NCBI RefSeq assembly: GCF_016903815.1 | Contig: NZ_CP069972.1 | Reading direction: 5' to 3' (one strand) | Length of the DNA: 64,000 nt | From: Escherichia coli | Lineage (GTDB): Bacteria > Pseudomonadota > Gammaproteobacteria > Enterobacterales > Enterobacteriaceae | In this document: one piece after another, positions 2,488-27,735 of the stretch | Layout: each line of letters starts with the position of its first letter | Position numbering within the stretch: position 1 is the first letter of the stretch | Made by a program: the position numbers and the translations under genes | The notes under the pieces: model-generated | Databases searched by the model: none | Told to the model about the DNA's origin: nothing | The model's input: only the letters and a program-made list of their open reading frames with translations

Positions 2488-2946
2488 ATGAACCGTATTA
2501 TACCTGCGGGGTGTCTTGCCGCCCTTTTTCTGGCTGGCTGCAACTCCCCTTCTCAGCATACTCCTGTTCCGCGTAACTACGGTGCTGCCTCTGATGTGGC
2601 GGTTACCCGGCACACTCAGTACACATTATGGGACAAAGGTGTGTTTTCCGGCCAACTTCCGGTTTCAACGGGGTCTCATCTTCTGACAGCTAACAGCGAT
2701 CGCCTTTCCTTTGACTGGGAAGGTGATGCGATTGAATTACTGAACGAACTGGCCAGAGTCAGGGGGATGCAGTTTAACTACAATGGTGTCCGCCTGCCGT
2801 TACCAGTCAACCTTCACGTCCGGGATATGACGTTTTCCAATACGTTGAGACTTATTGAAGCCCAGACAGCCTGGAGAGCAACAATCCATCAATATCCGGG
2901 CTTGTTACAGGTCAGCTTCATGCAGCCGGAGAACCGGAAAAAATGA
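2488..2946 (+). CDS. traH: TraH-like lipoprotein (152 aa)
   Basis: Lipobox LFLAGC near N-terminus; stop overlaps next start (ATGA); operon position. Confidence 0.6.
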   Translation: MNRIIPAGCLAALFLAGCNSPSQHTPVPRNYGAASDVAVTRHTQYTLWDKGVFSGQLPVSTGSHLLTANSDRLSFDWEGDAIELLNELARVRGMQFNYNGVRLPLPVNLHVRDMTFSNTLRLIEAQTAWRATIHQYPGLLQVSFMQPENRKK

Positions 2947-3761
2947 AAGCACTCACCTCTCTCCTTTTGCCAGTAATACTGCTTACTGGTTGTTCTTCTT
3001 CCCCTACCATCTCGCCAGGTGGTGTCAATACGCCACCACCTGACATTAATGCATGGCTTAAACCACGAAGTGAAAAGCCGGATAGTCTGTCAGAAACACG
3101 CTGGAAAATGCTGACAGACGCAGGTAAAACGCTTGGATTTCGTGGTGGCAAGGCTCAGCGTTCATGGGAGCTGATTCAGGCGCTCAACGCCCGGGAAAGC
3201 ACACTTAATGCCTTATACGATTTCCGGCCACTGATTAGCCCGGAAGGCTGGCTACCACCGGTTATTGATGAAGCACAGGACGTAGCTCATATCACGCCAG
3301 ATCAAATCCGGACCTCTTCCCGGGTCTGGACCATCATTCGCCCTGAACGCTTTGTCAGCAATCCACCGGGCTGGCGTGACTGGCTTCTCCGGGGGCTTTC
3401 AACAACAGCCACTCCGGGTACAGAAGGCAGCGTCGTTCCAGAAGACAGCGTGCAACGAAAAGTGTGGGAAACCGCATTACGGCAGGGATGGCAGGAAGGA
3501 AGACAAAACGCCGACCTGACGCTTGAAGCCAACCAGAAAACCCTCACCCGTGATTACCGGGGCATGATGCTGTACTCACTTCTCTGGCGTCAGGGCATGA
3601 TCACCCGTCCGGATGTTTCTGATCAAATGCAAACCGTTACAGGTGACGGGAAAAAACTGGTCACTGGAGATCGTGTTCGTCGCCTTAAAAATCATGCGGA
3701 ATTCAATCTTCAGAAATCTCACTGGCGTCCGCTTATAGGCACTGAAGGAGGCTCCCGATGA
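2943..3761 (+). CDS. traI: TraI-like lipoprotein (272 aa), Dot/Icm-type
   Basis: Lipobox ILLTGC; translationally coupled to traH and traJ; operon position. Confidence 0.6.
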   Translation: MKALTSLLLPVILLTGCSSSPTISPGGVNTPPPDINAWLKPRSEKPDSLSETRWKMLTDAGKTLGFRGGKAQRSWELIQALNARESTLNALYDFRPLISPEGWLPPVIDEAQDVAHITPDQIRTSSRVWTIIRPERFVSNPPGWRDWLLRGLSTTATPGTEGSVVPEDSVQRKVWETALRQGWQEGRQNADLTLEANQKTLTRDYRGMMLYSLLWRQGMITRPDVSDQMQTVTGDGKKLVTGDRVRRLKNHAEFNLQKSHWRPLIGTEGGSR

Positions 3762-25095: not shown

Positions 25096-25130
25096 ACGTT
25101 TCCAGGCTTATCAGTCGACAAGTTCCCGGA

Positions 25131-25205
25131 TCAGTTCCAGAACAGCAATCAGCGCGTTTGCAACGGCAACTACTGCCCTGAGAACGATGATTAACAGATT
25201 AATCA
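25131..25205 (-). CDS. Candidate type I toxin-like hydrophobic peptide (24 aa, MINLLIIVLRAVVAVANALIAVWN)
   Basis: Not in ORF track (<60 aa); GGAG 8 nt upstream of ATG; almost entirely hydrophobic; sits beside repeated sRNA-like elements. Confidence 0.35.
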
Positions 25206-25277
25206 TCCGCTTCTCCATCACTGGAGGAAATCACCGTTGCTTACTCTTACATTGCCTGTCACAACGGCACTTTCAGT

Positions 25278-25301
25278 GTTAGTTGAAAAGAGACTTCCTC
25301 C
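25278..25301 (+). repeat. Copy 1 of ~24-bp repeat GTTAGTTGAAAAGAGAYTTCCTCC
   Basis: Near-identical to 25465-25488. Confidence 0.6.
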
Positions 25302-25464
25302 TGCCAGAGCACTGAACACAGCACCACCTGTTTGTTCAGCCAGGACTTAAAATCTTGCATCCATAGTCCCGATGGATATCACGGCAGAAGTGTCGCCAGA
25401 CAGAGCTAACCTGCGGATTATAAGGATGGTTGCTATCAAATGAACAGCTCGCTATTATAAGAAC

Positions 25465-25551
25465 GTTAGTTGAAAAGAGATTTCCTCCGGTCAGGGCCAC
25501 CCACTCTGTAACGGAACAGTAAAAAAACCGACCTCACCAGTCGGTTTTTTT
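25465..25551 (+). ncRNA. Candidate ~85-nt small RNA (repeat copy 2 plus terminator)
   Basis: TATTAT -10-like box just upstream; repeat core then strong terminator 25521-25551. Confidence 0.3.
25521..25551. terminator. Bidirectional Rho-independent terminator
   Basis: A7-AACCGAC-loop-GTCGGTT-T7. Confidence 0.65.
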
Positions 25552-25704
25552 ACATCTGTTGTTTCTCAAAATCCGTCCGACATGCCCGTCACACCGGGGA
25601 AACTCATGCTCTGAATCAGAACCAACCATCTCAACTTTGCCGTCTCCTGAAAAAACTGGCACATTCAGTTCGATAACTACCCATAAATACAGAGAGAAAA
25701 TCCG

Positions 25705-25956
25705 ATGTCAGAAAAGTGGAGTAAAGAATTCGACTCTTGCTTTCAGGTGGGGAGCATAGAAGAAATTGCAGATGCTCTCGAGAAACGCAGCGGAAGCGAG
25801 GAAAATGCGTTAGCCATGCTGGCAATGACAGCCTTCACACTCATGACCCGACGTGGTATCTGCGAAATGCAGAACGTGGCCCCCGATGGCAAAGGCATTC
25901 GGCTGGAGCTAATCGGCTTCAGGGAAAATGAAACAATACCGGATACGCTTCATTGA
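25705..25956 (+). CDS. Hypothetical protein (83 aa)
   Basis: Track ORF with weak GAGAG RBS; no recognisable motif. Confidence 0.3.
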   Translation: MSEKWSKEFDSCFQVGSIEEIADALEKRSGSEENALAMLAMTAFTLMTRRGICEMQNVAPDGKGIRLELIGFRENETIPDTLH

Positions 25957-26027
25957 AGAAGAAAGGGCGCAATGAGGTCAGCCTTCGCAACAAAGCGGCG
26001 GCAGAAAACCTGCCGCCGTGTTGCCCG

Positions 26028-26180
26028 TTAACGTTTAACTTCGTAGGCTAACGTTGCCACAAGCACTGTGTTTCCCTGCTGGAGCCGGAGTCCGCAAAGC
26101 GAATCCCTCACCATCCAGACAAAACACAGAATCGTCACACAGATGACGATTAACATCATTAAAAACGTTCGCTGTGGCAT
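26028..26180 (-). CDS. pndA: Hok/Gef-family type I toxin, PndA-like (50 aa)
   Basis: Not in ORF track; translation MPQRTFLMMLIVICVTILCFVWMVRDSLCGLRLQQGNTVLVATLAYEVKR with GGAGG RBS; single TM plus conserved Cys typical of Hok family; hairpin 25996-26018 downstream. Confidence 0.8.
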   Translation of the reverse strand: MPQRTFLMMLIVICVTILCFVWMVRDSLCGLRLQQGNTVLVATLAYEVKR

Positions 26181-26212
26181 CATAGCCCCTCCATTGCCTT
26201 ACGGCGGTTATC

Positions 26213-26295
26213 GGGCTACTATAATGTTGTCTAGGCATTACAGTAGAGCCCTTGGTTGATTGATAAAAAAATCTCCAGGGGCTTTCTGCTGTATA
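26213..26295 (+). ncRNA. Candidate Sok/PndB-like antisense RNA region over the toxin leader
   Basis: TATAAT-like box at 26220-26225; lies antisense to the expected mok/pndC start upstream of pndA; exact ends not determined. Confidence 0.35.
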
Positions 26296-26510
26296 CCGTC
26301 CACAAAACGCTTTCGGCATACAGCCTCAAGCGCCCGCAGCTATTCTAACGACTTTCGTATCGGTAACAATCCTTTTAACCAGCCCCACACATCTTTCGGA
26401 CATGGTGAGTACAAAAGGCTGCGCTCTCGAACATTTGACATTGAAAATGATTCAGGTGACAGCCTGAATGTAGCAGGAGTCCCCGTCCTTCTGGCATAGA
26501 AGATGTCAAC

Positions 26511-26591
26511 GGGCTACTATAATGTCGTTCACGCATTACAGTAGAGCCCTTGGTTGATTGACAAAAATCTCCAGGGGCTTTCTGCTGTATA
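26511..26591 (+). repeat. Second copy (~85% identical) of the sok-like segment
   Basis: GGGCTACTATAATG...CATTACAGTAGAGCCCTTGGTTGATTGA...TCTCCAGGGGCTTTCTGCTGTATA shared with 26213-26295. Confidence 0.6.
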
Positions 26592-26748
26592 TGGTTTAGT
26601 TAACAAAGAGAGCCAGTGTTCCACTGAGCAAAACCAGTAGCTATTCATGCTTACAATTATCTTCTCCATATCTGAAATAACTCAAACAGCCCAATAGAAA
26701 CATATTGTTACATCTAAGATCTTGAAAAGACCTCTTTGAGAAATCAAT

Positions 26749-27735
26749 ATGAGATCACGGTATGTTGATAGGATAATATATATGAAGAAACTATTGATTC
26801 GATTAATACCTGATGCAATATATGAGGCTCTGGAAAAGACAGCTCTGCATTCTGAACGCTCCCTGGAAGCACAGGCCAGATATATCCTTAGTTGCTCCGT
26901 AGATAATGAAAAACAATTAACTGGTGGTGAACGCTATCAAAGAGAAATAACCGCGCGTCTTAATCAAGCGTTATCAGAAGCTAATGAGGTCATAACAGCC
27001 ATTAATCTTGTTCCCGCAAGAATTGCAGAACAATTAGGCCATCATGACGCCATAGAATCCGAAAATTGGTTCACCGGAAATGCTGTTCCTAGCTTTACAG
27101 AGCTTGACGAATTAAGCGATATCTTTGGATGCTCTCCAGATTGGTTAAAGTTTGGCGAAAATGTACCTTATCCAAAGAGTTCTAAAGGAAGGATAAACTG
27201 GAATCGTGGCGGAGAAAAAGATATCGATGCACTTTTAGAGCCTGACAACAAAGGTCGTAAAGTCTCATCTATTCATATTTTCAGGGTAAATGAATCTGGC
27301 AATATACTAATACTGAGAGAATTTGAAAACAGCATAACTACAGATTTTTTCTCAACAAACCTTTACTTATCAGACAAAGAAAAAATAGGACAGGGCGGAT
27401 TCCACGACCTGGTCGATTTCCTTGTAATTTTACAATCCCTTTATTTAAAATATATAAATAGCAATCTGTTAGTGAAAAGCTATAACATTAGCCAATATGT
27501 ACTGGATTCCTGTTATAAGAGCGGAGAAAAGCACCCCATAACTATATGTAGTGCAGGTGAGACAAGTACCTGGTGGGAAGACATATGGCATGAAGACATG
27601 ATAGCTCAATCGAGGAATAATGAGTCCTACTTCTGGGATGGTGACAAACCTCTTATTGATAGCCTTCATAAAGAACTTCAAAAAAATAACAGATTAAAGC
27701 CAAACAGTGAGTTAGATATGCCACTAATTGGTTAA
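26749..27735 (+). CDS. Composite DNA-binding protein: N-terminal Arc/MetJ-type RHH, central XRE-like HTH, ~170-aa C-terminal domain of unknown function (328 aa; alternative start 26782)
   Basis: RHH pattern LLIRLIPDAIYEALEKTALHSERSLEAQARYIL; HTH-like ARIAEQLG...GNAVPSFTELDELSDIFGCSPDWLKFG; AT-rich. Confidence 0.55.
   Translation: MRSRYVDRIIYMKKLLIRLIPDAIYEALEKTALHSERSLEAQARYILSCSVDNEKQLTGGERYQREITARLNQALSEANEVITAINLVPARIAEQLGHHDAIESENWFTGNAVPSFTELDELSDIFGCSPDWLKFGENVPYPKSSKGRINWNRGGEKDIDALLEPDNKGRKVSSIHIFRVNESGNILILREFENSITTDFFSTNLYLSDKEKIGQGGFHDLVDFLVILQSLYLKYINSNLLVKSYNISQYVLDSCYKSGEKHPITICSAGETSTWWEDIWHEDMIAQSRNNESYFWDGDKPLIDSLHKELQKNNRLKPNSELDMPLIG

Follow-up and report, generated by a model that had tools for sequence, protein, structure and literature searches.

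The pndBCA system is a textbook addiction module of the hok family, and the loci of the IncI1 plasmids R483 and R64 were reportedly described by Nielsen and Gerdes in 1995 and by Furuya and Komano in 1996. For R483, published work has reported post-segregational killing (PSK) by pnd. By analogy with hok/sok and with R483 pnd, a stable pnd mRNA would be held inert through pairing of its 5' and 3' ends, and translation of the toxin PndA would be coupled to that of a leader ORF, pndC. The short-lived antisense RNA PndB, transcribed from a TATAAT promoter within the leader, would block pndC translation and trigger degradation, and plasmid-free segregants would lose PndB first and be killed. The hok/sok (parB) system of plasmid R1 shares with pnd a Hok peptide, a mok-like leader ORF, a Sok-like antisense RNA directed at the leader start, and tac/fbi pairing; however, the two are different family members by sequence. 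To our knowledge, an orphan Sok-like copy is not part of the R1 hok/sok paradigm. The chromosomal hok loci of E. coli K-12 were reportedly found by Pedersen and Gerdes in 1999 to be inactivated by insertion sequences. Hok 'islets' have been reported to arise by local duplication (bioRxiv 10.1101/2025.08.07.668861). The locus described here resembles the K-12 loci and the islets in that hok-family loci are broken by IS elements and occur as local tandem or partial duplicates. It differs from them in that it is plasmid-borne, involves an IS200/IS605-type element and retains an apparently functional copy beside the relic.

The window, which is the whole stretch of 64,000 nt of E. coli DNA that was analysed (contig NZ_CP069972.1), is the transfer region of an IncI1 plasmid (traW-traY, excA ... 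trbABC, nikB). The region is 100% identical to IncI1-type conjugative plasmids, for example pSF-468-2 (NZ_CP012627), and the gene order in the identical plasmids is traW-traX-traY-excA ... dqlB ... Hok/Gef ... hypothetical (328 aa) ... trbA-trbB-trbC-nikB. The trbA-pndC interval is one of the five IncI1 pMLST loci and its length varies through insertion of finQ (PMC2887853); it serves in IncI1 plasmid typing because it varies. The pndBCA loci of R483 and R64 are like that of the window in position (excA to trbA), in the pndC overlap, in the leader, in the antisense promoter and in the 5'/3' closure. The locus proper of R64 does not differ from that of the window and the PndA proteins are identical. 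In contrast to the window, R64 features no second leader fragment and no cargo gene, and trbA follows directly after pnd, with 291 bp between the pndA and trbA starts. The features of the pnd locus and the position of trbA are as follows.

25962 to 26335, minus strand: full-length pnd mRNA, with ends predicted from the Rfam sok match and the computed fold
25996 to 26018, minus strand: GC-rich terminator-like hairpin in the 3' part of the pnd mRNA, from the sequence and promoter scan
26028 to 26180, minus strand: pndA, 50-aa Hok/Gef membrane toxin, RefSeq start
26035 to 26238, minus strand: pndC, mok-like leader ORF of 67 aa (204 nt) that overlaps pndA, from the ORF frame
26220 to 26297, plus strand: PndB (Sok-like) antisense RNA gene, with the -10 box TATAAT (26220-26225) followed by a hairpin
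26342 to 26369, minus strand: predicted pnd promoter TTGTTA-16 nt-TAGAAT, sigma-70-like, from the promoter scan
27953: start of trbA

The translation of the pndA ORF is MPQRTFLMMLIVICVTILCFVWMVRDSLCGLRLQQGNTVLVATLAYEVKR, and an alternative start (26028..26183, minus strand) would give a 51-aa protein with one extra Met. PndA matches the Pfam family HOK_GEF with E = 1.5e-12 and is WP_001331364.1 (Hok/Gef), a RefSeq protein common to the identical plasmids and R64. These results bear out a first-pass annotation of the window, which had recognized a Hok-family gene of 50 codons on the minus strand below the length cut-off of its ORF list; type I toxins are missed by ORF tracks with a 60-aa cut-off. 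The same annotation had dismissed the longer overlapping ORF at 26035..26319 (minus strand) as being in the wrong frame. This 94-aa ORF is the pndC frame extended upstream, and is thus a real, mok-like leader frame and not noise. The pndC start is located 55 nt ahead of pndA, and both this offset and the 204-nt length of pndC are the same as those tabulated for PndC/PndA of pESBL (PMC4288162). The leader ORF begins within the antisense target, overlaps pndA and terminates close to the toxin stop codon, as expected of mok and pndC.

The Rfam sok model (RF01794) represents the hok-type mRNA leader, and it covers 26178..26335 on the minus strand over its full length (model positions 1-157) with 134.2 bits, where the gathering score is 59. 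The predicted pnd promoter sits just upstream of the +1 defined by this match. The predicted pnd mRNA, running from 26335 to 25962, folds with a minimum free energy (MFE) of -164.8 kcal/mol, with z = -8.07 relative to shuffled sequences. Closure of the 5' and 3' ends by tac/fbi pairing is typical of hok mRNAs, and in the predicted pnd mRNA a tac-like 5' GGGCGCUUGAGG pairs with an fbi-like 3' CCUCAUUGCGCCC. The computed MFE and centroid structures both feature GGGCGC.UGAGG at the 5' end paired with CCUCA..GCGCCC at the 3' end. The PndB hairpin has a computed energy of -30.0 kcal/mol and is perfectly complementary to the pnd leader, and the RNA presumably starts at ~26232, ~7 nt past TATAAT, by analogy with Sok. 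Homology of the pnd region with R64-type plasmids extends to ~26377, and 25962-26377 contains every part of a canonical pndBCA locus, a type I toxin-antitoxin system of the hok/sok family. We infer its PSK activity and transcription starts by analogy with the described systems.

The interval between this locus and trbA contains a second, partial copy of the pnd leader, and the features that surround the two copies are the following.

26212 to 26295: repeat copy 1, the duplicated part of the genuine pnd leader, from sequence alignment
26378 to 26444, no strand assigned: 67-bp stretch specific to this form of the locus, with no match outside plasmids of the same form
26445 to 26509, plus strand: putative IS200/IS605-family right-end remnant (IS609/insQ-like) of ~65 bp, from similarity to insQ/tnpB 3' ends
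26510 to 26591, plus strand: repeat copy 2, probable relic of a second pnd locus, from the alignment and an Rfam sok match of 38.4 bits
26592 to 27897, plus strand: low-GC cargo segment absent from R64-type plasmids, from comparison with other plasmids
26749 to 27735, plus strand: RHH-HTH protein gene, an ORF of 328 aa, or 317 aa from the likely true start at 26782

The two copies are in direct orientation with a spacing of 296-298 nt and are identical at 77 of 84 positions (92%), with five mismatches and one 2-nt indel in an A-run; their final 29 nt are identical. This identity is far beyond chance. TATAAT is located on the plus strand of both copies, at 26220-26225 and at 26518-26523. The first-pass claim of a leader region duplicated ~300 bp upstream, with a TATAAT-like box in each copy, is therefore sound. 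Copy 2 retains the -10 box and a PndB-like RNA segment whose hairpin is intact, and an ATG at 26536-26534 on the minus strand resembles the start of pndC. It lacks a toxin, a pnd promoter, a tac element and the native -35 region, and the homology stops at 26510 and at 26591. An ORF search of the window found no Hok-like toxin ORF downstream of copy 2. The Rfam sok match of copy 2 is below the gathering score of 59, with only central model positions aligned. The predicted hairpin of copy 2 has an energy of -30.1 kcal/mol, compared with that given above for PndB, and the predicted duplex with the pnd leader is -109.2 kcal/mol for the copy 2 RNA versus -127.1 kcal/mol for the cognate PndB. By sequence and computed fold, the features of a Sok/PndB-type antisense RNA (-10 box, stable terminal hairpin and leader complementarity) are all present in copy 2, and the relic may still be transcribed because the -10 box and the intact PndB-like hairpin are kept.

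Of the five mismatches between the two copies, three (26231, 26232 and 26234) affect or adjoin the predicted 5' recognition tail of the antisense RNA and alter codons 2-3 of pndC. A fourth, at 26228, is located in codon 4 of pndC, ahead of where the RNA is predicted to start, and the last, at 26266, is in the hairpin loop. The predicted 5' tails of the two antisense RNAs are UAGGCAUU and CACGCAUU. Between the window and the related locus L007, which diverges uniformly by 1-2.5%, copy 2 differs at 2 of 81 positions. The relic is conserved no better than its flanks in this comparison, and the substitutions are too few to infer selection. One L007 change, G26574A, converts a G-U pair to an A-U pair in a hairpin pairing that was drawn by hand. 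A promoter-like sequence, TTGAGT-18-GATAAT, is present at window positions 26656-26685 on the minus strand and faces leftward, in the direction of copy 2 and then pnd. Were this site active, the relic would be transcribed in the sense orientation, and transcription may continue into the pnd promoter region.

On its toxin-proximal side, copy 2 abuts the IS sequence. IS200/IS605 right ends feature the 3' end of tnpB, then a subterminal hairpin with a terminal cleavage motif ~10 nt downstream (TCAA in IS608). The stretch 26445-26509 would correspond to the last tnpB codons, a degenerate subterminal hairpin and the terminal ...GATGTCAA, which ends in GTCAA. It is 81-86% identical to the insQ/tnpB 3' end and right end on plasmids, and among 5426 E. 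coli genomes, 4877 contain insQ 3' ends to which it is 83-85% identical. The 3' arm of the hairpin is mutated (GCATAG vs GCGTGG), tnpA, tnpB and a left end are absent at 26445-26509, and this stretch is a remnant and not an element. The right-end remnant and its flank were also considered as a TnpB guide RNA against intact pnd, which is implausible given a scaffold of ~65 nt with ~85% identity and no tnpB.

On the other side, copy 2 is joined to the cargo segment. The RHH-HTH gene that it carries probably starts at 26782, where L007 is annotated with a protein of 317 aa and from where, at residue 12, the alignments of distant homologues begin. The protein features a FitA-like RHH domain, a Cro/CI-type HTH domain and a conserved C-terminal domain, and it belongs to a small (21 clusters), plasmid-borne and entirely hypothetical family. 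The GC content of the segment is 0.32-0.40. Searches of NCBIfam, PADLOC, PDB sequences and PHROGs with the RHH-HTH protein gave only generic repressor-type HTH matches. The gene occupies the slot that holds finQ in other IncI1 plasmids.

Comparison with other plasmids revealed several forms of the pnd-trbA interval. Form A, which is that of R64 and the pattern in most sampled records, features one copy of the leader; homology with the window ends at ~26377 and resumes at ~27898, before trbA. Form B is that of the window, in which an extra 1.52 kb comprises the 67-bp stretch, the IS remnant, copy 2 and the low-GC cargo segment. Form B or the copy-2 variant was found in ~65 PLSDB plasmids, 66 of 5426 complete E. 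coli genomes and 5 metagenome contigs, and the architecture is kept in variants that have diverged by 2.5-5% (L007, L017). An intact pnd/hok locus with the copy-2 variant was found neither in PLSDB, where only 65 plasmids of the same form were returned, nor in a metagenome scan, which returned five contigs of the same form.

Form C is represented by 36 PLSDB plasmids, in which a single copy with copy-1 type SNPs is joined directly to the cargo; therefore, 26296-26509 has been lost, including the pnd promoter and the tac element. A crossover within the 29-nt identical block would be expected to yield this form, and by sequence the two copies appear to have recombined. In one example, L003 (NZ_MN702386.1), pndA and the PndB gene are kept at 2817-3242 while the promoter and the 5' tac region are deleted. 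Plasmids of form C score as 'pndA-positive' but, judging from the elements they have lost, probably cannot express the toxin normally.

Form D is that of pESBL-EA11 and comprises 512 PLSDB records. finQ is located in the same slot, and a 171-nt partial pnd copy, which is 91% identical and includes the promoter, lies between finQ and trbA. In L008 (pESBL-EA11, NC_018659.1) the 171-nt direct repeats of the pnd promoter/leader, at 1706-1876 and 3127-3297, flank finQ, and recombination between them would yield the R64-type arrangement. The finQ-type variants (pESBL-EA11, pEC_Bactec) resemble the window in having, in the same slot, a cargo gene and a second partial copy of the pnd 5' region in direct orientation. 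In these variants the partial copy is on the trbA side of the cargo, keeps the promoter and tac, and is without an IS remnant, whereas in the window it is on the pnd side, lacks the promoter and tac, and abuts an IS609-like end, and the cargo is the RHH-HTH gene rather than finQ.

A toxin-less pnd is found in L006 (CP056802.1, IncK2/Z; 1960-2200), from which pndA and the 83-aa ORF that otherwise lies downstream of pnd are absent. The pnd 5' half, which consists of the promoter, the tac element and the PndB gene, is located directly upstream of trbA and adjoins, at the same breakpoint (...GTCAG followed by CGGGCTAC), a related IS200/IS605 right-end remnant. L006 looks like a recombinant of a left-hand relic, such as that at 1499-1640 of L007, and pnd proper. 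L007, L012 and L017 each feature such a further relic ('relic 1') to the left of pnd, with the same breakpoint and a related right-end remnant. Relic 1 of L007 and L012 keeps the promoter and a tac-like region. The combination of an IS right end and a pnd fragment was considered as a discrete mobile unit and rejected; relic 1 of L007 and L012 shares the left breakpoint and not the right one.

The arrangement is probably explained by a canonical pndBCA locus accompanied by copy 2 as a doubly truncated, neutral relic in the variable trbA-pndC interval. The toxin-proximal side of the relic would have been cut off at an insertion of an IS200/IS605 (IS609-like) element, of which ~65 bp of the right end survive, and the promoter-proximal side would have been replaced by the foreign low-GC cargo segment with the RHH-HTH gene. 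The relic would have arisen within the trbA-pndC interval, a recombination-prone, length-variable hot spot of IncI1 plasmids, and as an 82-nt direct repeat it appears to permit homologous recombination in which pnd loses its promoter and tac region, giving form C. The order of these events, including which form is ancestral, would follow from parsimony only. The first-pass suggestion of a rearranged pnd locus holds insofar as the extra copy is a truncated relic beside an IS remnant; the pnd locus itself is intact. The first-pass annotation would be refuted if the second copy were simply the ordinary 5' end of a canonical pnd mRNA, and this is not the case. Position upstream of pnd is the one point in favour of reading it as the 5' part of a long canonical mRNA, which together with the reading as a chance or low-complexity match carries next to no weight: the full-length Rfam leader ends at ~26335, the segment is absent from R64 and from the sampled R64-type plasmids, which have a single copy, and the 77/84 identity with its 29-nt perfect block argues against chance.

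It is unlikely that copy 2 is a functional orphan antitoxin gene, that is, one encoding a second PndB-like RNA that raises the antitoxin dosage or neutralises the pnd variants of competing I-complex plasmids. A transcribed and even functional second antisense RNA is conceivable because the perfect -10 box, the intact hairpin and near-full complementarity to the pnd leader are kept and because the architecture survives in variants of 95-97.5% identity (L007, L017) as well as in the ~65 PLSDB plasmids. Copies of the pnd 5' half without the toxin likewise persist in IncK2/Z plasmids and beside finQ, and an interference plasmid that carries PndB without functional PndA permits curing of IncI1 plasmids (PMC5330492). 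However, the native upstream (-35) region of copy 2 has been replaced by IS sequence, its predicted 5' recognition tail deviates from the cognate target at three of the first four nucleotides, it is conserved no better than the surrounding junk, and 36 plasmids have lost one copy without obvious cost. Selection for an extra antitoxin is likely weak because deletion of pnd from pESBL left plasmid stability unchanged (PMC7602700). That the relic is live at present, with a PndB-variant RNA whose altered 5' tail would buffer PndA expression or confer cross-immunity to PSK by a pnd variant of a competing I-complex plasmid, is judged from the sequence to be quite unlikely. If the orphan antitoxin were real, the toxin-less pnd 5' halves of IncK2/Z and finQ-type plasmids would represent the same anti-addiction strategy, and the relic RNA, if expressed, would represent an orphan RNA antitoxin occurring in nature.

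That the RHH-HTH gene downstream is now transcribed from, or attenuated by, the co-opted promoter and hairpin of copy 2, a possibility which the first-pass annotation had raised as reuse of the antisense region to control the adjacent regulator gene, is very unlikely. The copy 2 promoter has the same direction as the gene and is located ~230-260 nt upstream of its start, a consensus scan gave no strong plus-strand promoter in 26592-26748, and a PndB-type promoter precedes the gene in both form B and form C. PndB, however, points toward trbA in every form because of the orientation of pnd. No sok-like element was found near the distant homologues of the RHH-HTH protein (40-53% aa identity) in Klebsiella, Enterobacter and E. 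coli plasmids, and the copy 2 promoter is separated from the gene by a GC-rich hairpin that ends in a UUUCU tail, ~170 nt before the gene. A weaker candidate promoter of the gene itself was assigned by eye; it adjoins the likely start at 26782 and consists of TTGAAA (26722-26727), a 17-nt spacer and CAATAT (26745-26750). The first-pass suggestion of regulatory reuse is accordingly not supported, and the relic is most likely a neutral scar.

The pndBCA locus is known and already annotated, the relic is an unannotated but ordinary rearrangement scar, and the locus holds little new biology. Recombination appears to act on partial pnd duplications, and pnd would thereby lose its promoter (form C, 36 plasmids) or its toxin (IncK2/Z); therefore, the presence of 'pndA' or 'pndC' in surveys guarantees no functional module.

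An 83-aa ORF (WP_001291964.1; window 25705-25956) is located directly downstream of the pnd 3' end. It has no match in PHROGs and is conserved in all forms with pndA. At a distance of 0.5-1 kb from pnd, window positions 25111-25553 contain another type I toxin-antitoxin locus, which consists of the following features.

25111 to 25206, minus strand: dqlB, DinQ-like toxin gene, from the annotation in the identical plasmids
25466 to 25553, plus strand: AgrB antisense RNA, Rfam match of 55 bits against a gathering score of 40

A further agr-like repeat is present at 25278-25310, and related plasmids feature two or three AgrB-like copies.
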